This document shows, piece after piece, positions 2 to 52,330 of a stretch of 64,000 nt of DNA. The stretch's first letter is position 1. Every line of letters begins with the position of its first letter. Source of the DNA: a virus; the IMG/VR virus record IMGVR_UViG_3300048839_001082, positions 17,523 to 81,522 of that record. One strand, 5' to 3'. The notes below the pieces were generated by a model. The model was not told where the DNA came from. It saw only the letters and a list, made by a program, of their open reading frames with translations, and did not search any database. The position numbers were made by a program, and so were the translations under genes.

Positions 2-3000
2 AGATACAATCCTAATTTCCGCTTCAGAACAGACGCTGCCACCAAAGAACTTTTAGATCTCGCTAAGAATGCTGAAGACTCTGTAGTATTCACTAATGAA
101 GCAATAGAAACTGCTTTAGGTGAAGCTCGTATAAAATTAGAAAGAATTGATGCATTAGTGCGTGAGCAAGAAACTACCATGTTTGGTAGTTATAAACCTT
201 TAGAAATGACCGGAAGACAAGGCGAGTACAATCAGACTTTATTGAATGGTTTTAACAGTGCCAGAGATGAAGCACTGCAACGCGTCAGAGAAAAGTTAGC
301 TTTCGATAGAGAAGAAAAGGCTATAAGAAAATTTAATAAACAGCTTAATGAAGTCGAAACCGTTGCTAAGAATATATTAAAGCTTGAGTTTGATGTTGAG
401 GATATATTTGCATTTGATCAACACAGCTTCAACAATATGGTCAGAATAACGACTGAAGTTGATGCATTGGGCAAGGCACTTATTAAGACATCAGATATTG
501 CCAGTAGAAATGCAATAATTTTAAAGATTAAAGAACAACGTGATCAATTTGTATATGAGCAATCTGAAGCAAGACTTGCGGAACCTGTTTATAATCAATC
601 CAGATTGCCTGAGTTCATGTCGGAAGCAGGCATGCAAATGTCACCCGAATTTGCGAATTCACTCAGTGACTTTAATGCAGGAATTATTGCAAAGATAGCT
701 ACAGACTTATCAAATAAAATAAAGAAAAGCAAGTTAAAAGTTCCGGGCAGTCCGGAGTATACAGTTCTTGCGGAAGAAATTAGAGCTGACCAAGACGCGA
801 ATGCAAGGTTCATTGCTGATTTGGCTAAATCCAATCAAGAGACCTTTTTCTATGTAAAAGATCTTGCGGGTAAATATGAAGTAGACTTCCCTGGGCTAAT
901 GAAGAAATACGGACTTTCCGGGGCAAAGACTTTATTATCGAAATTGGCGGATAAAGAACAAGCACGTAGTGATGCCATTGCCAAGGGTGATATAGGTATT
1001 CTACCTGGAATTGATAACGATATTGCCAGATTTAAAGAAACACTTGCTGAAATTCCTTTGGATGTGCAAACAATGCTTTCGACGATTGGAAATGTCGGCG
1101 TTTCGATTGACATCAATGATTTGTTTAATGCGCCTGAGCTTTTAGCAACACTTACAGAAGTTGCTAATAGACTAAGAGAAATTGATAAAGATTTTAAATT
1201 TAAAGGACCGACCCTTACTTCCGAAGGCCTTGATTCAATATTGATTCGTCAACAAGCTCAACAGAGAGCGGCTTTTGCGTCTTCTTTAAAGACGATTGAC
1301 AATACACCTCAAAAATTGGGGACTTTGCTTTCAAATTACGGAGCGGATACTTCTAAAGATATTTCGGCATTAACAGAAAGCACTCGTAATTATATTGTGG
1401 AACTTGAGCGTGTTAAAACCACTATTGAATTTTTGAGAAAGTCTAGACAAAGCCCTGCAGATACCGAAGCACTTTTTCAGATGGACACACTATTTAATCG
1501 ATTGACAGAAAGCTTTAAAAATCGTTTAAAGAAAGTGGGCGAAGTATTCGGTGAAGTGAATTCTACACTTAATTTAGAACTTACGGAATCGCAATTCTTT
1601 GGATTTTCTAAAGCTGCTCGTAAAACATTATCAGATTACGCTAACTATTTTGCCAGAGGAATTGAGGCTATTAGAGACTCATTTGATGGCAAAGACATGT
1701 TCGGTACAAGTGCTGAAGACTTCTATAAGAAATATAAAGCTGTTTTAAAGAAGTTAGAATTCATTAAAGTGGTGGAAACATCGCTGGAATCTATTTCTGA
1801 TGTCGTGACCGACGGTCTGGGTGCACAGTTTTCCAAGTTAAGCTCAGCCATGGGCGATCTTCAAATTGATAAGTCAAGCTTCGCCACATTGCCTTCAGAA
1901 CTTCGTGAAAGTTCGACTAAGAGTGCTCTCGCCGTTAATGCATTATCTGGTTTGAATGATTTATCAGGTTTATCTGAAGAGCAACGTGCTTTGATAAATA
2001 CATTGTCACCGGATGGCTCTAATGCAGAATCTATTTTAAATCAAATTGTTGAAGAATTACGTCGTTCCAATTTGACAGAATTGGATCCTCAGATAGCTGA
2101 ATTTTTGAAGAGTCAGTCTGAATTCCCGCGATCACAATTAGACGCCACCAATAACTTATCGTCCGCAATATGGACATTAAAAGATACTATTGATGCATTG
2201 ATTTTGAAATTTCCGATGGCAGTTCCGAAGTTTGCTTCAGGTGGTTCAATTAAAGGTCCCGGAAGCGGTATTTCAGATTCTATACCGGCATGGCTTTCCA
2301 ATGGTGAGTTTGTCGTAAATGCCAAGCAAACCAAAAAGCATCGCGGTCTTGTCGAAGCAATAAATAAAGATAGACTTCCTAGATTTGCTGATGGTGGGTA
2401 CTTCGGGAATCCCCTTCACATGATCGATAGTCTTGACGATACGATTAATGTGGATGAATTGCTGAAAGTCTATCCTAAGTTTCAAGATATTCTAAATTTA
2501 AAAGAAAATACTTCTGCTGAATTGGTTAAGAGATTTGGAAATAATTTAGATCTTAATAATTTGAATCCAAAAGCGTTTCTTGAGTTTCGAAAGATTTCAG
2601 ACAGTTACGCAGAATCTCTTGCGAATTTGTTAAATTTGGATTTAAATTTAACTGATGATCTAGACGTTTTTAGATTTGAACCTGATTTAAAATTAGGTTC
2701 GGAGCAAGTCAGAAAGTCATTTATAAATTTACCTGAACTTGGTGCAAAATACGCTGACTTTCCAAACAAGACCGCAGCGGAAGCAATCAGATACCATGAG
2801 TTTGGGCATGCAATTGCATTTAAATCTCGCAATCTTCCAATAGATCTCGGGCCTGATGTCGACCCTGGTTTAACAGCCGCAATGTTTAGAAGAGTAAAGG
2901 TTCCAATAACGGAATCTGGAAATCTTGTATTAAAAGATTTTCTCGGAACTCCCTTATCTTCGATAAGCATGGAAGATGCAATTAAACAATTTAATTTGCC

Positions 3001-5140
3001 GGATGCGCTATTAGAAAGGTATAAGAAGACTTCTCCTATTTTATTTGATGAAGTGGAAGCTTGGCGAATAGGTGATTTGATATCTCCTTTAAAATTGAAT
3101 ACAAAACCTTTCGAAAGAGCAGCTTTAGGGACATATTCAAATCCCGGACTTACTCAAACATTTGTTAGAATGCAATATGCGGATGAATTGAAATCATTAT
3201 CTTTTAAAGAAACTCCGACACATTCTGCGTTGGTATTAAAAGAAGCGACAGCAGCATTATCAAACCCCCTGGATGTAGACGCTTATCTTGCTAGAGTGAA
3301 TGCTTTTCCAGACTTTGCAACGCTTAAAGAGAATACGCCAGATGCGCTTCAAAAAGATCTTTTAATTTATAAAAGAATGTTTGATGAAAAGGCTAGCCAA
3401 ACATTAATGGGAAAAGCTACGCTTCCCCAGAAAGCTAAAGCTTTTGCAGAACTTTCCAAGAGTGTTCTAAAGAATGCTGCAAAGAATAGTATTGCTCTCA
3501 TAAAGAATCCTAATTTTGTTCCCAGTTTGATCGGTGGTGTTGCCGTTGAAGAACTATTAAGGAGAACGCTACCTATTGAAGACCATTTCATAGGTCTTGC
3601 AGACCAAATGGAAGGAACCTTACCGATAGAAATGAGAGGTGTGATAGCAGCATACGGCGCATTTGCGCAATCGTTGTTAGGACTCGTGGTAGGAAACTTA
3701 GTCGGTGATAAAATTTTTGGTGCTAAGAGACTCTTTAAAGTGTTTTCCAAAAATACATTTGCGAATGGAGGCTCAGTAAAAGGCCCCGGTGGCCCTGTTG
3801 AAGACAAAATTCCTGCATTTCTCTCCAATGGTGAATTTGTCGTAAACGCGGCCAGTACAAAGAAGCACAGAGCTCTTCTGGAACGTATCAATTCAGCTAA
3901 AGGTTACAAGCTCGGCGGTCCTGTCGGTGACAATCAAGATGTGATTGAACGCGCCCTTAGAGGGATTCAATATGGACAAATTGACGCTCTTCAAGGTGTC
4001 AGAAAGTTGAGAGCGCAAGCTTCTATACTCGATATCAATTTGAATCCATTGCAATTTGAAGTGCTCGATCAAAAGAAACGTGAAGAATTTAGAAGTCTTT
4101 TAGAAAATGCTTTCCGAGCAAGAATCGAAGCTTTAGATGCAAAGACTCCTGAACTTGCGGCTGCCGCTCACAGAGCTTTAACGAATGTCGATGAATTCAT
4201 GGATAAATACATGACACGATTCGCTGATCCTGCAAAAGAAGCTGGAGCTAATTTTGCCAGAGATTCAGAAGAAAACTTCCAATCGGGCTTAGCTGATTTA
4301 CTCAAGGGGAATACCGCAGAAGGTAAGTCAATTGGTAAGACATTTGCTGATAATTTTCTTGATCAATTCACGAATAGCGTTATAAATACATTCGCTAAGG
4401 GAATTACTGATCAACTTTTTGGAAAAGATTCGCCTATAACAGAAGTGTTAAAAGAAGCGGGAACAGGCATTTTTGGTGTGTTGAAAAAGAGTTTTTTCAA
4501 GAATAAAGAAGAAATTCCAACCGGTGCGCCTTTGACCGCGACATCCGGTACACTTTCGCCATTGATAGCCTCTGAAGGTAGTCCTTTATTGTCTGAAACG
4601 ATTAATCCTTTTGAAAGCTTAGAATCGTTAACGGAAGACTTCAAAGTCTGGTTTGATGGTTTCGATGCGACATTAACGGATGGTCTAAAAAGTATCGAAT
4701 CTATTGATCTGAGTACGCCACTGGCAGGATTGGGCAAGTTATTATCAGACAACCTAGATGAAGCTATCAATATGTTCATAAAGTTTACTGGTGGTTTTGC
4801 TTCCGGTGGTTTTGTCAGTGGACCGGGCACGAGTACTTCTGATTCTATTCCCGCAATGTTATCTGCGGGTGAATTTGTTGTAAATGCAGCATCTGTCAAA
4901 AAATTCGGCCCATTACTTGAATCTATTAATTCAGGACGTCCTCGTAATTTTTCTGGAGGCGGTCTTGTGGCACCTTCGCCATTAGCTGAAAGACCTGTTT
5001 CAGTCGGTGGGCAGCAAATCATAAACCTTAATATAACTGGTGATATTAGCCGACAAACAAGAAGTGAGATTTACGCAATGATCCCACAAATAGCCGGCGG
5101 AGTTAATTTACACAACAGAGAGAAAGGTTTAAAGGTATAA
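2..5140 (+). CDS. Tail tape measure protein, 5'-partial
   Basis: Frame is open from position 2. Long helical protein just upstream of the tail genes, with three copies of the TMP C-terminal motif FAxGGxVxGPG...DxIPAxLSxGEFVVNA (starting 2231, 3758, 4796). Confidence 0.85.
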   Translation, partial: RYNPNFRFRTDAATKELLDLAKNAEDSVVFTNEAIETALGEARIKLERIDALVREQETTMFGSYKPLEMTGRQGEYNQTLLNGFNSARDEALQRVREKLAFDREEKAIRKFNKQLNEVETVAKNILKLEFDVEDIFAFDQHSFNNMVRITTEVDALGKALIKTSDIASRNAIILKIKEQRDQFVYEQSEARLAEPVYNQSRLPEFMSEAGMQMSPEFANSLSDFNAGIIAKIATDLSNKIKKSKLKVPGSPEYTVLAEEIRADQDANARFIADLAKSNQETFFYVKDLAGKYEVDFPGLMKKYGLSGAKTLLSKLADKEQARSDAIAKGDIGILPGIDNDIARFKETLAEIPLDVQTMLSTIGNVGVSIDINDLFNAPELLATLTEVANRLREIDKDFKFKGPTLTSEGLDSILIRQQAQQRAAFASSLKTIDNTPQKLGTLLSNYGADTSKDISALTESTRNYIVELERVKTTIEFLRKSRQSPADTEALFQMDTLFNRLTESFKNRLKKVGEVFGEVNSTLNLELTESQFFGFSKAARKTLSDYANYFARGIEAIRDSFDGKDMFGTSAEDFYKKYKAVLKKLEFIKVVETSLESISDVVTDGLGAQFSKLSSAMGDLQIDKSSFATLPSELRESSTKSALAVNALSGLNDLSGLSEEQRALINTLSPDGSNAESILNQIVEELRRSNLTELDPQIAEFLKSQSEFPRSQLDATNNLSSAIWTLKDTIDALILKFPMAVPKFASGGSIKGPGSGISDSIPAWLSNGEFVVNAKQTKKHRGLVEAINKDRLPRFADGGYFGNPLHMIDSLDDTINVDELLKVYPKFQDILNLKENTSAELVKRFGNNLDLNNLNPKAFLEFRKISDSYAESLANLLNLDLNLTDDLDVFRFEPDLKLGSEQVRKSFINLPELGAKYADFPNKTAAEAIRYHEFGHAIAFKSRNLPIDLGPDVDPGLTAAMFRRVKVPITESGNLVLKDFLGTPLSSISMEDAIKQFNLPDALLERYKKTSPILFDEVEAWRIGDLISPLKLNTKPFERAALGTYSNPGLTQTFVRMQYADELKSLSFKETPTHSALVLKEATAALSNPLDVDAYLARVNAFPDFATLKENTPDALQKDLLIYKRMFDEKASQTLMGKATLPQKAKAFAELSKSVLKNAAKNSIALIKNPNFVPSLIGGVAVEELLRRTLPIEDHFIGLADQMEGTLPIEMRGVIAAYGAFAQSLLGLVVGNLVGDKIFGAKRLFKVFSKNTFANGGSVKGPGGPVEDKIPAFLSNGEFVVNAASTKKHRALLERINSAKGYKLGGPVGDNQDVIERALRGIQYGQIDALQGVRKLRAQASILDINLNPLQFEVLDQKKREEFRSLLENAFRARIEALDAKTPELAAAAHRALTNVDEFMDKYMTRFADPAKEAGANFARDSEENFQSGLADLLKGNTAEGKSIGKTFADNFLDQFTNSVINTFAKGITDQLFGKDSPITEVLKEAGTGIFGVLKKSFFKNKEEIPTGAPLTATSGTLSPLIASEGSPLLSETINPFESLESLTEDFKVWFDGFDATLTDGLKSIESIDLSTPLAGLGKLLSDNLDEAINMFIKFTGGFASGGFVSGPGTSTSDSIPAMLSAGEFVVNAASVKKFGPLLESINSGRPRNFSGGGLVAPSPLAERPVSVGGQQIINLNITGDISRQTRSEIYAMIPQIAGGVNLHNREKGLKV

Positions 5141-5141
5141 T

Positions 5142-5738
5142 ATGTACGGCATCCTCAATGGCACTACAGTCATTGCTAAATTCGTGGCACCTTTGTCAGT
5201 GAAAAGCAATGTACCGGTATTCGTGTCGGATGCCCTTTCATTAAAGAGAACAGTAACTAAAAGAAATGCTCAACGTTGGGAGATCTCAACGAATCTTGAG
5301 CCGTTATCTGTTGGTGCGAATGATTTATTCGCACTACTCGTTAATAAAGGTGCATCTGAAGTATTGACTATTCAAATGCCTCAAAATTATGGGGTTATTA
5401 AGAAAAGAGTATCCACAGCCTCTCCTAATGTTGATGGGCTATTGGGTGCTACAAACGTAAATGTTTCTCTAAACAATGGATTGATCCCTGCAGGTACTTT
5501 TATTAGATTTTCGAATCACAGTAAAATTTATATGGTGACTGCTGATTTCAATCAAACCGCAGGAATAATGAGTATTTTTCCTGGACTACTGATTGCTGTG
5601 CCGCCGGGTCAAATATTTAAACATCAGGACGATGTTGAAATGTTGTGCAGATTTGATACCGATGTTGTTATTGGCATGCAATACACAGACGGCATTCTAA
5701 TGGATGTCGGCACAGTGAATTTAATAGAGGCACTATGA
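5142..5738 (+). CDS. Minor tail protein (distal tail-like)
   Basis: Directly after the TMP and tightly coupled; beta-rich composition; call rests on synteny. Confidence 0.6.
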   Translation: MYGILNGTTVIAKFVAPLSVKSNVPVFVSDALSLKRTVTKRNAQRWEISTNLEPLSVGANDLFALLVNKGASEVLTIQMPQNYGVIKKRVSTASPNVDGLLGATNVNVSLNNGLIPAGTFIRFSNHSKIYMVTADFNQTAGIMSIFPGLLIAVPPGQIFKHQDDVEMLCRFDTDVVIGMQYTDGILMDVGTVNLIEAL

Positions 5739-6304
5739 TTAAAATATCTACAGGGCTTTCTGATTTACTGTTAGAGCAAACTGTTGAGTCTTTCTTTCTT
5801 GTGGATCTGAATAATGGTTTTAGAAAGACATCAAATGCATTTAATATAACCTATAACGGTAATTTATATATTGCTGATGGAACTCTTTTGACTGTGGAAC
5901 CTCCTCAAATGTCTTCGATCGTTGATCGTCAAGCTTTTAAAATTGTTATGTCCGATGTGAATATGGAAATGGGTGTGTTGGCGGAAGCCGGAATGTTAGG
6001 TACGCCTGTAAATGTATATATGGGTTTTATCAACATTGGAACAGATCAACCCCATACTGAGCTTGATAAATTTTTAACGATTTATAGCGGTCATATCGAT
6101 GGTGTTAGTTATCGCTATGATACTTCACTAATCGGAGAAAGAGCCTTTATATTGACATGCACAACACCAATGAGTGATTTAGATCTAAAGAAACCGATAT
6201 ATACCAGTCAAGACTATCTTGACAAAAATTATCCCGGCGATACCTCGTATCAACAGATATACGAGGGTTCCGGCCCGATTGAATTAAGATGGGGTAAGAT
6301 ATAA
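5735..6304 (+). CDS. Minor tail / tail-tip assembly protein
   Basis: Overlapping start; C-terminal Q...YPGD...ELRWG pattern typical of siphophage tip proteins; synteny. Confidence 0.6.
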   Translation: MIKISTGLSDLLLEQTVESFFLVDLNNGFRKTSNAFNITYNGNLYIADGTLLTVEPPQMSSIVDRQAFKIVMSDVNMEMGVLAEAGMLGTPVNVYMGFINIGTDQPHTELDKFLTIYSGHIDGVSYRYDTSLIGERAFILTCTTPMSDLDLKKPIYTSQDYLDKNYPGDTSYQQIYEGSGPIELRWGKI

Positions 6305-6675
6305 TGGTAGCTCCAGTAGTATTGTTTTGGATTAATGTAGCAGTTACAGCAGCTTCAATGGCTTATCAAGCAGATAAGGCACACAAGGCCAGAAAGAAAG
6401 CCAGAGAAGCAGCTGAAGCTCGTAAAGGTTTTGATGTGGTGGTTGAAGGTGAAGTGATGCGTCTTCCTATTGTATATGGAAGAGCTAAAGTAGGTGGTGT
6501 TCGCGTATTCCATGGCACTAAAAATAGTTTTGAATATGTAGAGCCTAATAGTGATCCTGCTTCGCGATTTCTAACTGGAACTCCTGATACTACTGCTCAG
6601 CAATGGACAGGATGGTCTGATAATGGCGGGAGTCCTGGTAATGGCGGTGGTATCGGTGACACCGGTGGTGGATAA
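6304..6675 (+). CDS. N-terminal segment of tail tip (gpJ-like) protein, encoded as a separate ORF
   Basis: LPIVYGRAKVGGVRVF motif normally found at the start of tail hub/gpJ-like proteins; ends in a Gly-rich tail. Confidence 0.65.
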   Translation: MVAPVVLFWINVAVTAASMAYQADKAHKARKKAREAAEARKGFDVVVEGEVMRLPIVYGRAKVGGVRVFHGTKNSFEYVEPNSDPASRFLTGTPDTTAQQWTGWSDNGGSPGNGGGIGDTGGG

Positions 6676-6691
6676 TTTATAAGGAACAATC

Positions 6692-9600
6692 ATGCCCGGT
6701 GGAAATCCATATGAAGATTATGCAGCATCAGTTGATGCACAATCCGCTGCCGAAGCTGCGGTAGTCCCTGAACAATATAATACAGTAACAATTCCCGGAA
6801 CGGTTTTAAATAAAACTGTTGAAGGTGAAAAGAATGAGTTTTTATTTATTCAACAAGCATTATGTGTAGGACCAATTCAAGGTGTTTATGATGTGTTAAT
6901 TGATGATGGTTTAGGGCTTACTGAACCTTCACTAGGTGCTGCAGGTTATGAAGATTTAGATGCAAAACCACTTTACCAAAGTGCGGCAATGCGTTTTGAT
7001 ATTCATAATGGAAATGGTGAAGAAGCTGATAATATCTTAGTAAAGAATTTTCCATCTAGATACTCAGCTAAATTTCCAAATACTGCGAATGCTTCTATCT
7101 GTGTTAAGCTAGATAGAGAAAATCCGCAATTCAATGGCGTGCCCAATGCGCAATTTTTCATCGAAGGTAAATTAGTAAGAGATATTACAAGGTCAGGCTC
7201 AGTTGGTGCTTATACTTACGCACTCACTGGTTTTGTTTACAGTAACAATTCCGCACTTTGTTTATTAGATTATCTTTTGTTATCGGAAGGTGGAAAAGGA
7301 CTTTCAGCTTCACAGATTGATCTTGAAAGTTTTTATGATGCCAGAATTTTATGTGACACACCCGTATTAGATAATGCTTTAATTGGTGGACGTATTTGGA
7401 GACCTGAATCTGGCAGAAGAAGTGTTTCACAACGAAACCTTCCACTCTATGAATGTAATATTGTAATAGACACTGAAAAGACAATCCGTGAAAATGTCGA
7501 AGCAATTCTTAACACAATGGGAGACGCTCGACTCGTGTGGAGTCAGTCTAAATATAAACTGGTAGTGGCCTACCCTGATTCAAATGCAGCGATTCCATAC
7601 AGCGGTGAAATCACGGATGATGAATTGGTGCTCGGAGAGCCTATTGATATTTCTTGGCCAACTTCCTCAGAACGCCTTAATTTTTGTACAGTTCGGTTCA
7701 GAAATGAATCGATGGATTTTAAAGAGGATTCTGTTTCATGGCCTCCGAAACAATCAGGTACGTACCTCAGAGGAATTGGAGCATATTCTTACCCGATAGT
7801 TACAGGTTGGCCTTTGGGTGAAACTACCAGTGTGTTCATGAATGCGAATGCTGTTTGGACGGGCGGGACAGATAATACATTTGTTTGGAAGTTCGCAGTA
7901 AAGAATTCAGGTGCGCATACTTTAGACATTGCAGTTGATGATGATGGTTTACTCAATGTCAGAAGGAATGGTATTTTAGAAAGCAACGCCACGAATGTCG
8001 GTACTGGTAATAACTGGCGAAACTTCGTAACTCGCAGTTTTAATTGGGTTGAAGATGATATTATTGAAGTTACGATTCTCGCTAACAATTACCAAGGGCG
8101 TATTGCCGGTGTCGCTGGTAGAGTTCTGAATGTTGCCCTTCAAGCTCAGATATGGACCACGAGGTCACCTGCTTATACTGATTTTGTTACAGTTAACCAA
8201 GATAAAACAGTTTATGATGAATTTTTAACTGAAGATAATAATATTCTTCTTGAAGCAGATATCTTCGCGGACGGTATTTCAGATTATTACCATGCTTTGG
8301 CGAAAGCTGAGGAAATGGTTAGAACAAGCAGAAGCGCATTTATTATTGAATTCACTTACAAAATTAAAGATAGATATTACGAACCGGGTGACTTCGTTAA
8401 ATTGACCAGTTCTACTTTGAATTTTGATGAATTGCCTTTAAAGACCGATGAGATTAAATCAAAAGACGATTTCACGGCTACTGTGAAGGCTACCAGATTT
8501 GACTATACTCAGTTAGCTTGGAATGTAAATGATAATGAATACATTGCTCCGAAAGCTGCCTACGATTTTCTTTTAAATGCTCCGAGTGAAGTCGTTTTGG
8601 ATCGTGAAATAATCTCTAACTTACAATCTTCAGGAACAGTTCGGTGGAAATCAACAGGTGATTCTAAGATAATTGGGTATATTGTTTATGTAAATAAAGG
8701 TGGTGATAACGATGCAAATGGTTATCCTTTGTTTACTGAAGTGGGCAGAACTGGAATAAGTGAAGAATTCGAACTTCCAACCCTAGGCTATATGTATGGC
8801 GGTGTGGGTGTTAAAGCAATTTCTAATACATCCAGTTCAAAAATGACGGTTAACGCACAAGTCATTTTTAATAATCGTAAAATTGCATTGACAAGCAGCG
8901 ATACACAGTTTATTAGAAGAGGTCCTGTTGATGAACCTAGTACAATAACACTGACAGCACACATTGCCGGATATGTGAATCCAGTGATCCATTGGTACAA
9001 GAACGATGTGCTTTTGCCTGACTCTTCAACAACACTTGTTATTTCTTCAGATCCTGATGGTCTAAGTGTTGTTTATAGATTAACAGTTGAAGAATCAGAA
9101 TTTGTTTGGAATGGTGAACACAGAACAGCTCTCTATAGTACAATTACCATAGCCACACTGTCTGTCGGAAATGCGGCATTTACGGACTACATATTTAGAC
9201 GTGCTTTAACTATGCCGGCAACACCTACAGAACAAGGGATGCCGGCAGGGTGGTACGACACGCCTCCCACACCAAATGGAAATCCATTATGGGTAACGTG
9301 GGCTGAAAAAGATTCTGATGGTTTCCTGATCACATCTTGGGTCACTCCCGTGAATATTGAATCGGGTGATATTCATGTTCAATATAGTAAAGATGGTATT
9401 GCTGATTGGCATGATGTATTTGCTCCCGGCGATCTTTTCATTCATTACAATGTGAATGGAGGGGCTTGGTCAGCAGCGATACAAATTTCTTTTGAAGGTA
9501 TTGATTATTTAACAACTCATTTCATATTCACACGTTCCTTACTTGACCCTCCAGCTCTTGATAATACCGCAGATGAGCCTGTCGGATGGCTTGATGCGCC

Positions 9601-44763: not shown

Positions 44764-45046
44764 CTCTAAAAATAAGTGCGTTAAAAACTGCGATCCTGAC
44801 ACGCGTTTCGCCGCCCTTCCCTCCCCCATGACTTTCGAAAACGGTGGCGACTCGGGTCAGTTCTGGCCCACGGTGTGGCATCCTCGATGTGTAGGTATTG
44901 CACCGAGATTTCCTGTTGGCTTAACCCTATGGGCAATCCTGGATGATCATTAATAAGTATTAAGGTTCTGGATTAGAAACATACTCTCTTCGGAGAGCCG
45001 TTATCTGGTCGCGGTTCGGCCAGAATTTTTATTAGGAAACTTTCTC

Positions 45047-45694
45047 ATGAGTCAAGAACTCCGTCAAGTATATGTTATCGGTGACAAGGAATTCACCACG
45101 AAGGCCGAAGCTCTGACATTCCTGCGTCGCCCTAAGATCGAAGCGGAAATGGTCAAGGTCACCGGTGGTAATAAAGACTTGACTACATGGCTTCTGGATA
45201 ATCAGGAGTCGGTGGAAGTTGCGTTTGAAGTTGGCACGATTCGTCGCGTCACTAAGTCTGAGCACAATAAGTTGTCCAAGGCCGTCGAAGCGCTGAAGGC
45301 CATTGAAGGCAATCCGAAGATTGCTTTCTTGCAAGAGAATGCCGGTGCGATCCTGGATTCTTTCCGTTGGCCCGCTGTTAAGCGTATGGATGAAGCTGAG
45401 AAGAATGCCGCGGCTCGTAATTCGCTCGTCGCCGCTAGCGAAGGTAATGAGGAATTGGCGGAGTGGATCGTCAGCAATAAGGATGCAGTCCTGGCCGCTT
45501 ATGACGCCGGTAAGGAGAAGCGTGAAGTCTCTACCAAGGCTACCGAAGGTCTGGCCGCTTATCGCGCCAAGAAGGCTGCTGAGAAGGCAGAAGCGGAAGC
45601 CCTTGAAATGGCGGAAGCTGAAAAGAAGGGACCTGAAGCGGTCGCTGCTCTTATTCAGAAGCGTGAAGCTGCAGCTGCTAAGAACGCTAAGTAA
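45047..45694 (+). CDS. Probably abundant Ala/Lys/Glu-rich protein of unknown function
   Basis: Strongly biased codons (AAG, GCT, CGT); own leader and downstream hairpin. Confidence 0.7.
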   Translation: MSQELRQVYVIGDKEFTTKAEALTFLRRPKIEAEMVKVTGGNKDLTTWLLDNQESVEVAFEVGTIRRVTKSEHNKLSKAVEALKAIEGNPKIAFLQENAGAILDSFRWPAVKRMDEAEKNAAARNSLVAASEGNEELAEWIVSNKDAVLAAYDAGKEKREVSTKATEGLAAYRAKKAAEKAEAEALEMAEAEKKGPEAVAALIQKREAAAAKNAK

Positions 45695-45702
45695 ATAATG
45701 TG

Positions 45703-45776
45703 AAGCCCCATTTTGAAGCACCCTGAGGTGTTTTGAGATGGGGCTTAAAAATGGAGATGGGCTTAAAAATGGAGAT
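45703..45776 (+). repeat. Long hairpin with 18-bp tandem duplication gggcttaaaaatggagat
   Basis: Units at 45741-45758 and 45759-45776. Confidence 0.7.
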
Positions 45777-45918
45777 TAATATGCTTACTTTGATAAATAT
45801 CGGACTTGCTTTGCTTTTCGCGGCCAATTTAACACTTTTTGTTACGCCTCATGGTTCTTGGTTCAATCTTTTCGCAGCTTCTTTCATTGGTCTTCTTTCA
45901 ATTATCAAATAAATAATC

Positions 45919-46197
45919 ATGACCGCAAAACGTACATGTCTGACCGTTCGCCAGAACTGGCTTCTCTGCAACTATCTCGCGGAGAATTACACAAGTTCAA
46001 AGATGAACGATACGCAATTCGCGAAGAAGGCTTCCGAAGAACTGGGATTTGATGTCTCAGTACCTCAACTCGGACAGCGTCGTCGAGAGATGGAAATTCC
46101 TTCTTTCATGGAAACGTCCAAAGAACCTGAGACAGTGATTGAACGTGTGCGGGAACTCGAGAAACGTGTTGACGCACTGGAACAAATGTTCAAATGA
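45919..46197 (+). CDS. Small HTH-like protein
   Basis: DTQFAKKASEELGFDVS..L..RR plus a coiled-coil tail. Confidence 0.5.
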   Translation: MTAKRTCLTVRQNWLLCNYLAENYTSSKMNDTQFAKKASEELGFDVSVPQLGQRRREMEIPSFMETSKEPETVIERVRELEKRVDALEQMFK

Positions 46198-46203
46198 TTA
46201 ACA

Positions 46204-46293
46204 GGACAGTTGGCTGAGAGGCTTAAAGCGCCGGTCTTGAAAACCGGAGTTGGCGAAAGTCGACCGTGAGTTCGAATCTCACACTGTCCGCCA
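46204..46293 (+). tRNA. tRNA-Ser(TGA)
   Basis: GGACAGT/ACTGTCC acceptor, CT-TGA-AA loop, long variable arm, G73 and CCA. Confidence 0.93.
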
Positions 46294-46319
46294 TTTAAAA
46301 TATAAGAGGATTAAATAGA

Positions 46320-46661
46320 ATGATTACAGAATCAAGACCAATTAGCGTACTCCGACGTGTTTTAATATGGGGAGGTGTTACAATTTTATCTAAACATGTA
46401 CGACAGTTTCCTGTTATTGAAATGCTCAATGCTGATGACATTGGGATTGGTTGGGTCATGACAAACACAGAATGGATGTTATTTGAACGTGATGATGCTT
46501 TAGTAAAGATCAAACGTAAATTGACAGTTGAGAGAATAGATTACGACGCATACACAAATAAGCAATTTAAAGAAAAGTATGGCTTTTATAAAGAGGCGCA
46601 TTTTGATCATTATCATAAATTTCATAAGGCATTGAAGACATTGCAACAATATTATGTTTAA
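46320..46661 (+). CDS. Hypothetical protein
   Basis: GAGGA RBS. Confidence 0.55.
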   Translation: MITESRPISVLRRVLIWGGVTILSKHVRQFPVIEMLNADDIGIGWVMTNTEWMLFERDDALVKIKRKLTVERIDYDAYTNKQFKEKYGFYKEAHFDHYHKFHKALKTLQQYYV

Positions 46662-46845
46662 GAACTAAAATGACACTCCCATTTCCCAGAGACATTGACC
46701 TCAAAACTATCATTTCAGACCTTAAAATCTCTCAGAGAGGACTTGAATTGCTGATAAATCGAACACCGACGAGCGAGTCTCGCAATGATTTGACGGAAGC
46801 AAATATCCATCTCATGGAAGCAATTGACGTTTTAAAGAAACAACT

Positions 46846-47055
46846 ATGAGCACTGTTAGTAAAAAAATCGCTGATGAAGTGATCGCTCAGAACGGTCGCT
46901 ATGAAGGAGATCCCCAAGTTTATTCTATTTGGAAATACACATCTAAGTGGAATACGGAGGGTTACAAGTTGTTTTATAAGCCGAATATGTATCTATCTGA
47001 TTCGAAATTTACGATCGATCCAAGGATTTATTGGAGTTATGATGAGCAATTCTAA
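46846..47055 (+). CDS. Hypothetical protein
   Basis: Coupled ORF. Confidence 0.55.
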   Translation: MSTVSKKIADEVIAQNGRYEGDPQVYSIWKYTSKWNTEGYKLFYKPNMYLSDSKFTIDPRIYWSYDEQF

Positions 47056-47296
47056 ATCAGGCACTGTGGTATTTGATGATCTTTGTATCAGTTACTTTTC
47101 TGATAAGGCTGGTCAAATCAATTACAAGATCACACGATTTGATCATTGCATAGCTCAGGATTTCACGGTTGATGATCAAAGCTTTTTTAGAGCATTGTCA
47201 ATTGCATTGCATCCCACTAACTTTCCGGATTACGACCGTGACTTTATGTGGGCAGAAGCAATTATGCCGAAAGGAGAGTTTAGATGGATTCCATGA
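47042..47296 (+). CDS. Hypothetical protein
   Basis: GGAG RBS before ATG 47042. Confidence 0.5.
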   Translation: MSNSKSGTVVFDDLCISYFSDKAGQINYKITRFDHCIAQDFTVDDQSFFRALSIALHPTNFPDYDRDFMWAEAIMPKGEFRWIP

Positions 47297-47315
47297 GTAT
47301 CGATGTTTCTCTTTT

Positions 47316-47501
47316 ATGCGCAAAGATGTCAAAAAGGCTTTAGAGCCTTATCTTGAAAAAGGATGGGAGATCTCTAAAAGTTCTAAACATTATCAAATGA
47401 AACATCGAGAGTACGGGACTGTTGTGATGTCTTCAACAGCTTCCTGCCCCTTCTCAATCAAACACATTCTCGGTGATCTTAAAAGAGCTGAAAAGAAATA
47501 A
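47316..47501 (+). CDS. HicA-like small RNase/toxin
   Basis: 61 aa; KGWEI..SSKHYQMKH...TVVMS...IKHILGDLKR pattern; start uncertain. Confidence 0.5.
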   Translation: MRKDVKKALEPYLEKGWEISKSSKHYQMKHREYGTVVMSSTASCPFSIKHILGDLKRAEKK

Positions 47502-47507
47502 TCGTTT

Positions 47508-47581
47508 GCCCTCATAGTTAAATGGTATAACAGGTCACTTGTAATGATCAATTCACTGTTCGATTCAGTGTGAGGGCACCA
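47508..47581 (+). tRNA. tRNA-Thr(TGT)
   Basis: GCCCTCA/TGAGGGC acceptor, CT-TGT-AA loop, TTCGATT, CCA. Confidence 0.9.
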
Positions 47582-47585
47582 TTAA

Positions 47586-47617
47586 GGTCGTCGGTTCGAT
47601 TCCGACTGGCGGCACCA
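47586..47617 (+). pseudogene. Isolated tRNA 3' half (Thr-like)
   Basis: ggtc-GTCGG-TTCGATT-CCGAC-TGGCGGC-A-CCA: intact T arm, acceptor 3' strand and CCA. Confidence 0.8.
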
Positions 47618-47633
47618 TTTTAAGGAAATCACA

Positions 47634-48026
47634 ATGAAGACTATTGGTATTGTTCTTTTGTCAGTGGTTTTGGCGTCGTGTGGTGGAGGCGGAGATGACT
47701 CGCCTTACGTCTCTAAATATGCTCGTTACAACGGGAGCTATACATGCAAAGTCGAAATGACGACACCCATGTATTTTCAGGTTAAAGGCGAATTTGAGGA
47801 TACACGGGCCACGCTCACGATGGGAGGCGCTAAGTACGTGTATGACGATGTATTCGCCGAAGTACGCGGTGGACATCCTCGTTACTCTGAAAAGTTCGGT
47901 GACTATGACAAGTATGAGACCGTGACATTTGGATATAAAGATGAAATGGTCATTTATCGAGGACCCTCCAGTAATTTGGATTATTATTACACGGATGAAT
48001 TCTTTCTTTGCACTAAGGATCGTTAA
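47634..48026 (+). CDS. Lipoprotein
   Basis: Signal peptide with lipobox LAS-C followed by a GGGG linker. Confidence 0.75.
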   Translation: MKTIGIVLLSVVLASCGGGGDDSPYVSKYARYNGSYTCKVEMTTPMYFQVKGEFEDTRATLTMGGAKYVYDDVFAEVRGGHPRYSEKFGDYDKYETVTFGYKDEMVIYRGPSSNLDYYYTDEFFLCTKDR

Positions 48027-49296
48027 TGGTGATCACTAAATTGAATACTTTGCCTGAAGAAGGTAAGGAAGACATGTTGGAAATTCTCGAATTGATGAAG
48101 AAATCAGTAACAGAGGGTGAGATCATTTCCTTCATCTCCGTTGGGATTGCACCCAATGATGAAACACTTATATGGATAGGTTCTCAAAAAAGAGTCACCA
48201 GGCTGCGCATGATGGGTGCGATCGCTAATCTTCAACATCATTTTAATTCAGAACAAGTATGATTACAGATGCCGATCGTTTAGACTTCTTAGATACTCTG
48301 ATCAATCGCACAGAGTTTCAAAACACTAGACGTCCCAAAGAATATGTCGCGTCAGATATGCATTTAGGGCAAGGTTGGTGTTCACTATATGTCAGAAACT
48401 TATTTGGAAACATCGTGAAATCTTCCAGTCAAAGTTCAGTTAGAGAAACAATTGATGCTGTCATGAATGGCGCAAAGGAATAAATATGGAACGCGTCACG
48501 TTGCACGGAGAAACATTTTTCGTGGTTCATCCGGTCGATCGACTAATGTCAAGTCATATGGTTCGTGAAGTGGTCGAATCTGGCGCTCGATTCGTGGTCA
48601 ATGCTAGAACAAGTGAATTGACCATTGACCGATCGGCCGTGAAGCAAAATGCTTCAATTTCTGTCACTGAAGATATTTATAAACGACTTGAGGTACTCAC
48701 GAAACAATTTCAATCAGCACTCAATGAATTAGCCGAGATTCGCAAAGAAATTTCCCTTCTTAAGAGGTGATTATGAAACGAGCTGATGTAATTGAAAATC
48801 TTTTGTTGAGTCGGAAAGCCGCACTTCATTTGTTCTATATTACTCAACAGTTCGGCATTCAGATCACCACCGATAATTTTGATATTGTGACAGTAGTTGA
48901 AGATGAGCCAGAAGTTCTTCGAGAAATTGAATTGTGGGCTGATGATGTAGGTTTGCTATCAAGAAAGCATCCTGAAGAAGCCAAGTTACTTTTCTTAGAA
49001 GTGCCTAAGAAATGACTAAAACAAGAGTAATTAATCAATGGATGGACAGAGACCCTAATTGGGTCTTTGTTCCCGTTGAACACGGTAAATATATGAGAGT
49101 CGAAGTGGCGGTGGTCAGAGCACCATGCATCGCTTGCGGAGCGCAATTGGGAGTACCTTGTAAACGTCTTAAAACAAATGGGATGGATTATAGCTCTTTC
49201 GTGCATGATGTAAGAAAGACACACGCGAAAGCAGGGCATCTTCATGATATTTATCATGATGTAATTTCAGAGGAAGTCGAATCACCACTTAAATAA
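48026..49296 (+). other. Run of five small coupled hypothetical genes (48026-48262, 48259-48483, 48486-48770, 48767-49015, 49012-49296)
   Basis: Overlapping start/stop codons; the last has a CxxC...C...H zinc-binding pattern. Confidence 0.55.
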
Positions 49297-49300
49297 CAAT

Positions 49301-49332
49301 GCGGGGTTGGTGGAATTGGTAGACGTAAGGGG
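49301..49332 (+). pseudogene. 5' fragment of a broken tRNA-Leu
   Basis: GCGGGGT-TG-GTGGAATTGGTAGAC...AAGGG; its acceptor strand is exactly complementary to ACCCCGC at 49982-49988. Confidence 0.8.
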
Positions 49333-49336
49333 GCAT

Positions 49337-49858
49337 ATGTTACCTTCGATAGAAAATGATAAATTTTTTCTAGAATTAATTGAAAAAGAAGAGCTATTTG
49401 TATCAAATTTAGGCGATGTCTTAGACCTAAATACTGGTAAACAAATAGGGTTTATCACAGGCGGTTATAAGAGAATTAATATGTACGGCAAGACGATGGC
49501 AGTGCATCGTTTAGTTTATTTAGTACATATTTCTGAAAACATACCTGAATTTCTAGCAATTGATCATTTAGATGGGAATAAGCTCAATAACAAGGTTGAA
49601 AATTTAGAAGCGGTCTCATATTCTGAAAATAATAAAAGAGCTGTTTCAAAAGGTCTGCACAAAATCGATATAGCGCGTTTAAAAGAAATTTCAAAAGGGT
49701 CTAAAAATGGAATGGCTAAATTGAATTGTGAAGAAGTAAAAGAAATACGCGCATTACGTGAAAAAGGATTTAAGGTAAAAGATATTGCAGAATTGTATCA
49801 TGTGTTGCCAAAAGCAATTTCACAATTGCTCAATGGCGTGACATATAAAGACTGTTAA
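49337..49858 (+). CDS. Free-standing HNH homing endonuclease with C-terminal HTH
   Basis: VSNLG, VHRLV, IDHLDGNKLNN...NLE....EN, then KNGMAKL...IAELY HTH. Confidence 0.88.
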   Translation: MLPSIENDKFFLELIEKEELFVSNLGDVLDLNTGKQIGFITGGYKRINMYGKTMAVHRLVYLVHISENIPEFLAIDHLDGNKLNNKVENLEAVSYSENNKRAVSKGLHKIDIARLKEISKGSKNGMAKLNCEEVKEIRALREKGFKVKDIAELYHVLPKAISQLLNGVTYKDC

Positions 49859-49863
49859 ATTCA

Positions 49864-49948
49864 GGCCGTGTGGCGAAATTGCTAAACGCAGTAGATTTAA
49901 AATCTACCACCGAAAGGTTTACGGGTTGGAGTCCCGTCACGGCCACCA
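49864..49948 (+). tRNA. tRNA-Leu(TAA) with reversed C19:G56 elbow pair
   Basis: GGCCGTG/CACGGCC acceptor, TT-TAA-AA loop, variable arm, A73 and CCA; D-loop has GC and T-loop TTGGAGT. Confidence 0.88.
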
Positions 49949-49956
49949 TTTCTATT

Positions 49957-49992
49957 GCGGTCATACCGGTTCGATTCCGGTACCCCGCACCA
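49957..49992 (+). pseudogene. 3' fragment of the broken tRNA-Leu
   Basis: ACCGG-TTCGATT-CCGGT-ACCCCGC-A-CCA. Confidence 0.82.
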
Positions 49993-50000
49993 TAAACATA

Positions 50001-50213
50001 ATGAAAATCAAATTTCCAATTTTAGATAAGAATTTTAACTTCTTGGGACATGTAGATGCCATCACTCCTGAAGAAGCATTGATGAAAGCTAAGAAGAAGT
50101 TTCATGAACCGGCAATGATGGTTGATCTTCTGGCGGTACCTCAGGGTAAATATATAATGTACTCAAAACTTCAAACTGTTGAAAGGTGGTCTGAATATGG
50201 TGTCACGCATTGA
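50001..50213 (+). CDS. Hypothetical protein
   Basis: ATG just after the tRNA fragment. Confidence 0.5.
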   Translation: MKIKFPILDKNFNFLGHVDAITPEEALMKAKKKFHEPAMMVDLLAVPQGKYIMYSKLQTVERWSEYGVTH

Positions 50214-50448
50214 TCGAAGAGAATATTATGAATATGTATTTTGGTATCAGGGTCGCCCTGAAGGTAATTGGGAAACTTTAGAAGAATTTACTGCATGCCC
50301 TCGTTATGAGTTGACTAAAGCCTTTTCTAATTTTGACAATAAACAAGAATTGATTTTTGATTATGAGGATAGTGAGACTTGCAAAAGAGCTGTTGAAGAA
50401 CACAATATGAGGCTCTATAGAAGAATTCCTTTCGTCATAAAGGATTGA
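50197..50448 (+). CDS. Hypothetical protein
   Basis: AGGTGG RBS. Confidence 0.5.
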   Translation: MVSRIDRREYYEYVFWYQGRPEGNWETLEEFTACPRYELTKAFSNFDNKQELIFDYEDSETCKRAVEEHNMRLYRRIPFVIKD

Positions 50449-50449
50449 T

Positions 50450-51127
50450 ATGTTGTTATACTCAGCTGATAAATTGGTGAAGCAGTCATGTTCTCAAATG
50501 AATTATTTGGATTGGCAAAGAAACCCTTCAGATGGCAACGTAATGACAGATTGGGATCAATTCAAAGGATCCACTGAAAGCCAACTCAAAGGAAATGAAT
50601 TCGCTGAGGAAGCCTCTAAATCTGATTACAAAGAGATGAGAGGTAGTTTCATTTTTGACTCTAAGACTTTGGGTGACACAATTCAAATCAATTATTGCTT
50701 TGATGAAGTTCGTTCCTTGCCTTCCAAAAACATTGTGATTGAACATAAGAGCGTCATATTGCGAGATGATGAGGATGTCACCACGAAAGAGTATTTAACT
50801 GATTGTGTTACTCAAGTCGGATTTTACAAAGCACTTCATGAGTTTTCAAACAAACAATATCGAACAGCTCGATTTTATGAAGAAGCGGGATGGCCTGTTC
50901 ATACATTAAATCTTTCATTCAAACCAATTGAATTTCTTCTTCATATTGGTGATAAATGGTATAAAATAAATACTAAAGATCCTTCTGAGATTCTTCGGTA
51001 TTACATCACTAAAATCAAAGCTTCAAAAGATTTTCAGAAATCGAGGGCATTTGATCTCAAATATCATAATAAATCTTGGAATTATTTTAAGAAGTTTATC
51101 ACTCGACGTGTAACTAAGGCGCTTTAA
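50450..51127 (+). CDS. Putative PD-(D/E)XK nuclease
   Basis: CFDEV...VIEHKS...TQVGFY resembles the D...ExK...QxxxY of RecB/Cas4-like nucleases. Confidence 0.5.
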   Translation: MLLYSADKLVKQSCSQMNYLDWQRNPSDGNVMTDWDQFKGSTESQLKGNEFAEEASKSDYKEMRGSFIFDSKTLGDTIQINYCFDEVRSLPSKNIVIEHKSVILRDDEDVTTKEYLTDCVTQVGFYKALHEFSNKQYRTARFYEEAGWPVHTLNLSFKPIEFLLHIGDKWYKINTKDPSEILRYYITKIKASKDFQKSRAFDLKYHNKSWNYFKKFITRRVTKAL

Positions 51128-51316
51128 TGAACTATACTTCTGACATCGTCAAAGAACAACAACTGAGGTTCGATCATTCACCCAAGATGAGGCAATTATT
51201 GAGGCATGAACTCATTTGTGAGAATCCTGATTCATCAACATTGAAGAGATATAAACTGGTGTTTCATTATGATGATGGAACCAAAATTGAGACTGATTAC
51301 AATGGCAGAATGATCA

Positions 51317-51748
51317 ATGGAAACACTCAAGCTTGAGAATGGTAAATATGAGCTTCGATATGATTCAAAAGAGCACACTCTGAAGGCATATCGACATGGC
51401 GAAATGTGGCAGGACTTCACCGGTAATAAATTCATTTATTTGTTGTTTATCAAAGCAATGGAATCTGATTATTATACTTCCAATTTCTTTCAGCAACCTT
51501 ATCAACTATCGGAGAAGGACATTAAGCTTCGAGAATTTGCTGAGAGATATAGTAAAGAAACTGAAGCATACGATCGAATGGTTTGTACCGGGCCAATTAT
51601 TGAAGGTTCAATTCGACCCATGAATGCTCGAGAAACAGCATTGATTTCAAGGAATGCTTCAAGGGCCTTTAATGAGATTGCTCATATGGCGATTCAATAC
51701 GGAATAACTGGGAAAGAACTCAGAAGCGAAATACTTTCAATCCCATAA
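51317..51748 (+). CDS. Hypothetical protein
   Basis: LKAYRHGEMWQDFTGNKFIY motif; last gene before the terminator. Confidence 0.6.
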   Translation: METLKLENGKYELRYDSKEHTLKAYRHGEMWQDFTGNKFIYLLFIKAMESDYYTSNFFQQPYQLSEKDIKLREFAERYSKETEAYDRMVCTGPIIEGSIRPMNARETALISRNASRAFNEIAHMAIQYGITGKELRSEILSIP

Positions 51749-51752
51749 TCAC

Positions 51753-51806
51753 ACCCTCCCCGGCTCACCTTAATTGGTGGGTTGGGGGGGGGTATAATTT
51801 TTTTTT
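51753..51806 (+). terminator. Strong intrinsic terminator
   Basis: Long GC-rich stem accctccccggctcacc/ggtgggttggggggggg plus T run. Confidence 0.75.
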
Positions 51807-51809
51807 GAT

Positions 51810-52330
51810 TTTATTATACATAAATAAAGAATGAAATTTTCAATTTATCGATCCTTCAGGGACCAAAAAGGGAAAATTCGGAGTTTCAATCTTTGTGTGA
51901 GTTGAGATTGAAAAGCTGTTAACTAAATGAAAGAGGTGCTTTGAGAAAGACACTCATCAGAATATCAAGAATAATGATTAACGATTAATGATACGTCTTT
52001 AATGACATTAGAGCACTCGAGCGAGAAGGTGAAATGAGACGTCATTAGTATAGATAATCGTTAATCTTATCGAACTCAATGGACGTGTTTAGAAGAACGT
52101 CCATAATAAGAACGTCCTATAAAGACGTGAGCGACACACGTCAGGTGCTATGCCTGGATCGCTCAGAGATCATTAAAGATGTATAAGTAGATAATAGCTA
52201 ACCTAAAAGATTATTAGTTAATTAGCGATACTCTATACTCTCTAAGAACGTTCTTAAAGATTATTATGGATTACACTCGGTGATGTACTTATGTCACTGA
52301 AAATTGGGTCGATTTTGGGCAGTTATTTGA
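51810..52330. other. Non-coding region with inverted and short direct repeats upstream of terminase (candidate origin or packaging region)
   Basis: gattaacgatta/taatcgttaatc inverted repeat, repeated agaacgtcc, palindrome taagaacgttctta. Confidence 0.45.

Follow-up and report, generated by a model that had tools for sequence, protein, structure and literature searches.

Homing endonuclease genes normally spare the gene that hosts them, lying either within an intron or intein or between genes. The gene for I-HmuI, an HNH nicking enzyme of Bacillus phage SPO1, sits inside a group I intron of the DNA polymerase gene, and group I introns, sometimes carrying an endonuclease open reading frame (ORF), are found in the anticodon loop of tRNA-Leu(UAA) in cyanobacteria and plastids. 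Here we describe a phage locus in which an HNH endonuclease gene and a complete tRNA-Leu(UAA) gene are nested together inside a broken tRNA-Leu(UAA) gene; the element is thereby lodged in its presumed target and brings along a copy to replace it. The locus lies in a stretch of 64,000 nucleotides (nt) from IMG/VR virus record IMGVR_UViG_3300048839_001082, hereafter the window, to which all positions refer unless a relative is named. The record is a phage genome of 81.5 kb derived from a metagenome; it is complete, has direct terminal repeats, and ends with the 64 kb of the window.

Endonuclease genes within phage clusters of transfer RNA (tRNA) genes, and the co-conversion of tRNA genes with them, are already known. 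PMC2330249 describes SegB of phages T4 and T6 as a free-standing GIY-YIG enzyme that cuts the tRNA genes of segB-less relatives by way of the T-loop motif GGTTCRANTCC, with neighbouring tRNA genes being co-inherited. The same paper places the genes of three site-specific endonucleases of phage T5, F-TflI, F-TflII as well as F-TflIV, in the T5 tRNA gene region; this is the same tRNA-cluster location as here, and the passage concerned mentions no nested or stump architecture (PMC2330249). According to a second source, SegB is widely associated with phage tRNA genes, phage tRNAs counter host defences that cut tRNA, and SegB can amplify these tRNAs (PMC13096335).

The present locus resembles SegB in having an endonuclease gene among phage tRNA genes and a tRNA gene that is carried along. 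The enzyme here is an analogue of SegB and not a member of its family, being of the HNH_3 type rather than GIY-YIG and sharing no homology with it. SegB is described as cutting near the CCA end, whereas the segment lost here is the anticodon arm, and as homing through homologous flanks without leaving stumps, whereas here the module lies inside its presumed target with both stumps and a spare tRNA of the same anticodon. I-HmuI (structure 1U3E) is similar in size (174 amino acids versus 173 here), in its HNH_3 core and in its helical, helix-turn-helix (HTH)-like DNA-binding tail; unlike I-HmuI, the gene described here is in no intron, and the interrupted gene appears to be functionally replaced by a cargo gene instead of being spliced. 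Compared with the group I introns of tRNA-Leu(UAA), the insertion is in the same region, but there is no ribozyme, 26 nt have been deleted and a second tRNA gene is carried. A full-text literature search returned no description of a module of endonuclease and spare tRNA nested in a broken tRNA gene, which is not proof of absence.

Architecture of the interrupted tRNA-Leu(UAA) locus

The locus is composed of the following features.

49301-49324, + strand: 5' stump of the resident tRNA-Leu(UAA) gene, with the acceptor strand, the 5' strand of the D stem, the D loop and the first base of the D-stem 3' strand; it aligns to intact phage tRNA-Leu(UAA) genes, and homology to the uninterrupted allele, found in sequencing run X2, ends at 49324.

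49325-49336, + strand: left end of the insert, a 12-nt leader with a Shine-Dalgarno-like AAGGGGG 3 nt before the ATG; it differs from the empty allele, and the joint is also present in sequencing run X1.

49337-49858, + strand: gene for an HNH_3 (I-HmuI-like) homing-type endonuclease of 173 amino acids plus stop, with a C-terminal HTH-like part; matches to PF13392, phrog_59 and 1U3E.

49864-49948, + strand: nested complete tRNA-Leu(UAA) gene with encoded CCA, called by ARAGORN and by Rfam RF00005 (56.8 bits).

49949-49957, + strand: filler of 9 nt that closes the insert on its right side, absent from the empty allele, whose match begins at 49958.

49958-49992, + strand: 3' stump of the resident tRNA-Leu(UAA) gene, with the 3' half of the variable arm, the T arm, the acceptor 3' strand, the discriminator A and CCA; the empty allele of X2 joins here.

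The two stumps fit together as the ends of a single gene. From 49301 the 5' piece reads GCGGGGT, TG and a Leu-type D arm (GTG / GAATTGGTAGA / C...), after which comes GTAAGGGGGCAT; the 3' piece holds a T arm (ACCGG/TTCGATT/CCGGT) followed by ACCCCGC, A and CCA, ending at 49992. The acceptor strands of the two are Watson-Crick complementary at 7 of 7 positions. In a phage database of 50,697 records, the 5' piece was matched best by genes annotated as tRNA-Leu (88% over 33 nt in Klebsiella phage Pylas), and the best match of the 3' piece was in Aeromonas phage AhC3_1 (91% over 35 nt), in a gene that ARAGORN identifies as tRNA-Leu(UAA). When aligned jointly, the pieces map to opposite ends of canonical tRNA-Leu(UAA) genes. 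A preliminary description of this DNA, made by a model from the letters, had taken the pieces for the two ends of one tRNA-Leu gene enclosing an intact HNH ORF and a complete tRNA-Leu(UAA). This reading was borne out in each part, by the acceptor strands and by an empty allele that reads through an intact tRNA-Leu(UAA), by a Pfam HNH_3 match of 42.8 bits, and by both tRNA-finding methods.

In total the insert measures 633 bp (49325-49957) and consists of leader, HNH gene, tRNA-Leu(UAA) and filler, with 5 nt separating the HNH stop (49858) from the start of the nested tRNA (49864), so that only 12 + 5 + 9 nt lie outside the ORF and the nested tRNA. Its G+C content is 34.6%, against 41.7% for the window. 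The nested gene is the only intact tRNA-Leu in the 81.5-kb genome, as called by ARAGORN in the window, and the first 17.6 kb of the genome hold no tRNA. UUA is the commonest leucine codon of the phage (343 of 1234), and losing tRNA-Leu(UAA) without a substitute would therefore plausibly be costly.

We also scanned for orphan tRNA ends with a strict pattern (T arm + 7 nt + N + CCA, outside ARAGORN genes) across 1,169,826 nt, comprising the window and 178 loci with 62 ARAGORN tRNAs. It matched three times, at the 3' stump, at the copy of that stump in locus L001 and at one further piece in the window, and gave no match in the other loci.

Empty and filled alleles

Sequencing runs were selected for sharing words with 48700-50600, and four of them (X1-X4) were aligned to 48000-51500; in X3 and X4, stretches of the locus without contig cover were treated as uninformative. 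The empty allele came from the Logan contigs of X2, a run labelled as a wastewater metagenome. One X2 contig (record 5) matches the window up to 49324 and continues with 22 nt unlike it, while in a second (record 6) the match covers 49958-50143 and is preceded by 34 nt that do not match. These loose ends overlap, as for consecutive assembly units. After ...GGTAGAC, the joined ends supply a D stem (GTG/CAC), an anticodon stem (AGAGA/TCTCT) with the loop CTTAAAA, and a 5' half of the variable arm that is identical to that of AhC3_1 and joins exactly to CGGTCAT-ACCGG.... The result is an uninterrupted 85-nt tRNA-Leu(UAA) with 26 nt in place of the 633 bp, and these 26 nt complete the 3' strand of the D stem and comprise the entire anticodon arm together with the variable arm's 5' half. 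With 4 differences in 512 positions (record 5) and 5 in 186 (record 6), the X2 flanks are 97-99% identical to the window, and the empty allele is by this measure on a strain-level relative of the window phage. An allele with an intact GCGGGGT...ACCCCGC tRNA-Leu was what the preliminary description had proposed looking for, and X2 supplies it.

The filled allele was found a second time in X1. One contig (record 2) covers 48953-49332 with 0 differences, crossing the left joint by 8 nt, and another (record 3) covers 49745-50210 with 4 differences, running from the nested tRNA through the filler and the 3' stump into the DNA downstream. Since the X1 contigs differ from the window at a few positions, they are not the same assembly. 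Among the runs that share words with the locus, none is listed as an RNA data set; the label of X1, 'RNA-Seq of metagenome', is a guess and has no bearing on expression. Taken together, the endonuclease gene is present in the window and X1 and absent in X2, and near-identical backbones occur in nature with the tRNA gene interrupted and with it intact. Judged by its structure, the empty form must be the ancestral one, because its 26 nt complete a perfect cloverleaf.

A chimeric contig of unrelated pieces might be suspected for a metagenome-derived record, more so as the Logan contigs are short and one X4 record has a strand-switch joint at 50093. Both joints of the filled form, however, recur in the distinct X1 assembly (records 2 and 3) and the record is complete with terminal repeats, and an assembly artefact is for practical purposes excluded.

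The empty allele also fixes the limits of the insert. The letters given in the preliminary description are all present, while homology ends at 49324 and not at 49332 and resumes at 49958 and not at 49957. That the insert replaces the anticodon loop held in so far as the loop is gone; what was removed is the whole anticodon arm and not the loop alone. The AAGGG ahead of the HNH gene, previously taken for a leftover anticodon stem, is no such remnant, given that the stem in the empty allele is AGAGA/TCTCT and that homology stops 8 nt earlier; of the 8 letters GTAAGGGG directly after 49324, 4 are unlike those of the empty allele. Since homology ends at 49324 and the empty-allele stem is AGAGA, AAGGGGG is part of the insert and not a recycled anticodon stem, and by its letters and place it is the insert's own ribosome-binding site.

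The same comparison bears on whether the insert could be removed from RNA so as to restore the outer tRNA-Leu, as in an intron. Enzymes like I-HmuI are often intron-encoded, but the filled allele lacks 26 nt of the tRNA, the anticodon among them, so that splicing could not restore it, and RNA joined from 49324 to 49958 would be no tRNA. Moreover, a search of 45000-52000 with E up to 1 gave no match to Intron_gpI or any other ribozyme, and the insert has no more than 12 + 5 + 9 nt besides the ORF and the nested tRNA. Restoration by splicing is accordingly of negligible probability, and a group I intron with an endonuclease ORF was ruled out by the absent ribozyme and the missing 26 nt. Integrase-mediated insertion was likewise rejected, as the insert comprises only the HNH ORF and the tRNA, with no integrase, and its borders lack a direct repeat of a tRNA 3' end, the 3' stump and the 3' end of the nested tRNA not being repeats of one another.

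The preliminary description had further suggested that the stumps could pair into an anticodon-less domain, similar to transfer-messenger RNA (tmRNA), that flanks the HNH mRNA and governs how it is processed; in a variant of this idea, the domain would be aminoacylated. The acceptor and T-stem pairs are indeed all intact, and the two ends, with their acceptor strands, are paired in the minimum-free-energy fold of 49301-49992 (z -4.3 over 692 nt). This intactness is explained by the recency of an insertion whose empty counterpart lies on so similar a backbone, however, and the fold is a long irregular helix rather than a cloverleaf, in which letters of the D arm pair with those of the T arm. 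Neither ARAGORN nor Rfam recognised a tmRNA or any other RNA family at the stumps, the sole Rfam tmRNA fragment match being at 47589-47606, away from the locus. In the X1 filled allele, the near-invariant T-loop A58 of the 3' stump is changed (49974 A>G), whereas the X2 empty allele keeps the A. Processing of the nested tRNA by ribonucleases P and Z would be expected to part the halves, there is no G3:U70 (pair 3:70 is G:C), and no other locus of this HNH subfamily has stumps. We regard a working split RNA as very improbable.

The HNH_3 endonuclease gene

HNH_3 (PF13392) is the only Pfam family found in the insert ORF, matching residues 55-99 with 42.8 bits (cut-off 24.8; 4e-11); no GIY-YIG domain was found there. 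The protein also matches phrog_59 'HNH endonuclease' (1.1e-30), and residues 106-170 match phrog_517 (HTH). In a profile search of the PDB the closest solved relative was I-HmuI (1U3E, 1u3e_M; E 2e-13, query positions 19-118). The residues H77, N81, N84, N85, N89 and N98 are invariant in both HNH alignments, and some of these His and Asn residues are presumably the catalytic ones of the beta-beta-alpha-metal motif. In the alignment, homologues P0002-P0008 begin where the window has the ATG at 49337; a longer frame with TTG or GTG initiation (183 amino acids; 182 on the record) extends back into the tRNA stump.

Database searches returned 255 relatives of the HNH protein at E <= 0.001, only 7 of them above 40% identity. 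The homologue P0002 was not found among viral contigs, which gave 8 distant relatives (best 40%), nor among genome contigs, which gave one distant match (41%). A 36-nt stretch within the gene (49574-49609, the conserved DGNKLNN region) is matched by contigs of X2 and X4 that diverge on both sides; these belong to other HNH genes and not to this cassette.

Association of the endonuclease gene with tRNA-Leu(UAA)

Three lineages of relatives, 44-47% identical to the window HNH protein, were available with genomic context: L002 (the same as the L170 contig) with L175 (44%), L082 with its IMG/VR counterpart L174 (47%), and L189 (44%). Their tRNAs were called by ARAGORN on their records, as a search with RF00005 missed some of the ARAGORN tRNAs. 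In all three lineages, a tRNA-Leu(UAA) lies directly downstream of the HNH gene. In L082/L174 and L189 the pair is placed between genes for a family-A DNA polymerase and a 5'-3' exonuclease, and in L002/L175 it is flanked by tRNA-Met and tRNA-Thr and precedes the terminase region by a few kb; the polymerase-exonuclease interval of the window contains no cassette. The phages concerned are distant kin of the window phage, with ~44-67% amino acid identity in polymerase, exonuclease and terminase-region genes. In two near-complete relatives (CheckV 96% and 98%), as in the window genome, the HNH-linked gene is the only tRNA-Leu. The occurrence of the pair in three lineages and in two other genome contexts indicates, from gene order, that HNH and tRNA-Leu(UAA) are a recurrent unit. 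Its gain as one block, as opposed to two independent gains, had been assumed in the preliminary description and agrees with the single 633-bp insert and with the linkage in every lineage.

Linkage of this kind is rare in the wider family. Of 168 HNH-family loci, 163 have no tRNA within 600 nt and 5 have one of any type; a tRNA-Leu is found at 3 of the 168, namely the window's own copy and its two closest relatives, with L189 being additional to these. Close relatives of the window phage itself may not be in the collections. In IMG/VR, the 94-amino-acid protein encoded upstream gave 14 pattern matches, 0 of which were confirmed, and the 24-nt 5' stump gave 0 matches, possibly for this reason. 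Among DNA from isolated phages, the 1.7-kb locus has no near match, and a distant search returned only a 67-nt tRNA match.

These data bear on whether the HNH gene was a mere passenger, the block having entered by random illegitimate recombination or through an unrelated break and the enzyme having another target, or none, and no part in the event. The position of the insertion is all that points to the HNH target, and this phage and its relatives are rich in other mobile nuclease genes, L174 having as many as 5 HNH-like matches. No recognised nuclease gene adjoins the other orphan tRNA 3' piece of the window (47586-47617). It would be an unlikely coincidence, however, for a module with tRNA-Leu(UAA) to end up within a tRNA-Leu(UAA) gene by chance, and insertion within the target is a classic signature of homing. 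The linkage to tRNA-Leu(UAA) in 3 of 3 lineages, set against the lack of any nearby tRNA at nearly all loci of the family, likewise argues against a mere passenger. We consider the passenger account unlikely.

Two further observations concern the relatives. L174 has ~5 separate HNH-like matches over 1221-9442, in a 10.6-kb stretch around the polymerase gene, and by these matches its phage group is heavily colonised by HNH endonuclease genes. In L002, the HNH-linked tRNA-Leu, which ends in CCA, is separated from the tRNA-Thr that follows by GGCACCA (4657-4663); this heptamer could be a trace of a displaced tRNA 3' end and is too short to judge.

The elbow of the nested tRNA

The nested tRNA departs from the usual form at its elbow, where C replaces G19 in the D loop and G replaces C56 in the T loop. 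The same C19:G56 swap is present in the HNH-linked tRNA-Leu of L002 (4572-4656) and L082 (3701-3787), both of which were found through the protein. The HNH-linked tRNA-Leu of L189 (3564-3649) has the ordinary GG and TTC, and the C19:G56 form also occurs without this HNH gene in four IMG/VR loci (L171, L172, L173 and L176), which were retrieved with a pattern that required both changes, so that their co-occurrence there is by construction. As a determinant of immunity the swap was set aside, since it is absent in L189 and hence not required for the linkage; from this distribution, the elbow is unlikely to be the sole immunity determinant. A scan for promoters and terminators over 47400-51400 remained at the level of shuffled sequence.

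Origin of the insert

We think it likely that the 633-bp block is a mobile module of HNH gene and tRNA-Leu(UAA) that entered a resident tRNA-Leu(UAA) gene, that its origin lies in homing by the endonuclease, and that the stumps are a recent scar. The HNH protein would be a homing endonuclease that makes a cut or nick within the 26-bp segment, or close to it, in the ordinary tRNA-Leu(UAA) genes that competing phages carry. Originally the endonuclease gene may have been free-standing beside its own copy of tRNA-Leu, in the manner of the free-standing endonucleases of T-even phages, which have the same arrangement with linked resistant genes. A break in the tRNA-Leu of this lineage would not have been repaired by way of homologous flanks because, we propose, the neighbours of the donor differ. 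After resection, illegitimate or microhomology-based copying of the stretch running from the ribosome-binding site through the HNH gene and tRNA to the 9-nt filler would have left both stumps in place, as a scar that gives no working RNA. The spare tRNA would compensate for the destroyed gene. The filled allele, having lost the target segment, should be immune, and its long homologous flanks could allow it to home into empty alleles by double-strand-break repair; we propose that a filled allele of this make, without target and with long homologous arms, acts as a homing donor.

Several observations fit this sequence of events. The insert removes 26 bp of the tRNA-Leu gene, as expected if the cut site were there, and the enzyme belongs to the family of proven homing nickases such as I-HmuI. 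Filled and empty alleles coexisting in wastewater samples are, as far as contigs can tell, what an active element would show. The low-homology repair needed for such joints has a parallel in phage T4, where Parker, Belisle and Belfort (Genetics, 1999) reportedly described illegitimate double-strand-break repair in the ectopic acquisition of introns and endonucleases; the T4 case offers a route for joints of this type and was experimental with introns, whereas the present one is natural and carries tRNA cargo.

Other observations weigh against homing as the origin. First, the target of the HNH enzyme is inferred only from the position of the insertion. Second, the empty allele consists of two short Logan contigs from one run at a depth of ~3-6, represented by their printed ends only. 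Third, no donor was found among the homologues recovered, the nearest of which (P0002-P0006) are 55-68% identical to the HNH protein, with P0002 at 65%. Fourth, no Leu stumps surround the pair in L002, L082 or L189, so that nesting appears to be a one-off here and not the usual state of the module; the preliminary description had proposed searching for HNH and tRNA genes flanked by tRNA halves, and the relatives with genomic context show the pair in three lineages and no further stumps. Fifth, the HNH gene of L082 (3120-3680) and L174 (7442-8000) is frameshifted after about residue 134, with its C-terminal part in another frame and the tRNA-Leu still adjacent, and the linkage, judging from the reading frame, persists there without an active enzyme. 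Frameshift decay is the usual fate of a homing gene once it is fixed. Lastly, the 9-nt core of the anticodon loop, TTAAAATCT, is common to the nested tRNA and the lost segment, and for this reason resistance of the nested tRNA is not readable from sequence.

More tentatively, the locus could represent a self-complementing homing element, for which any ordinary tRNA-Leu(UAA) gene would be a landing pad: the DNA of the anticodon arm would be cut, insertion would proceed without flanking homology, and the element would bring its own uncuttable tRNA. We hold this more general idea to be possible but rather less likely than not to apply in full. If true, introns and inteins would be joined by a third solution to the problem of how an endonuclease can live inside a useful gene.

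Homing by the HNH module, if correct, has consequences beyond this genome. Invaded and uninvaded alleles still circulate in wastewater phage populations at strain-level divergence, and they provide a natural, testable pair of empty and filled substrates for a putative HNH enzyme specific to a tRNA gene, with the likely cut region mapped from sequence to 26 bp. The locus would show one concrete route by which phage tRNA genes turn over and are swapped between genomes, and endonuclease-driven replacement of tRNA genes may be a general route for exchanging tRNA variants that evade host defences.

A second tRNA remnant in the window

The second orphan piece, at 47586-47617, comprises AGGTC, a T arm (GTCGG/TTCGATT/CCGAC), TGGCGGC, A and CCA, and begins 4 nt after an intact tRNA-Thr(UGU) (47508-47581). 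In the database it is most similar to genes annotated as tRNA-Thr (88.6% over 35 nt). A 5' partner was sought through the complementary acceptor sequence GCCGCCA, of which there is no + strand copy nearby, and through a D-arm motif search, which returned only the tRNA-Arg. The remnant of a tRNA-Thr-like gene next to an intact tRNA-Thr suggests, by its letters, that replacement of a tRNA gene by one of the same identity has happened at least twice in this genome.

Just upstream of the tRNA-Thr is a short ORF (47322-47486) that belongs to no Pfam family, and a 'HicA-like' label once considered for it was dropped for want of Pfam support. It appears to be a small gene that accompanies tRNA genes, its homologue in L189 (3681-3845; 35% over 55 amino acids, tblastx) lying just downstream of the HNH-linked tRNA-Leu.

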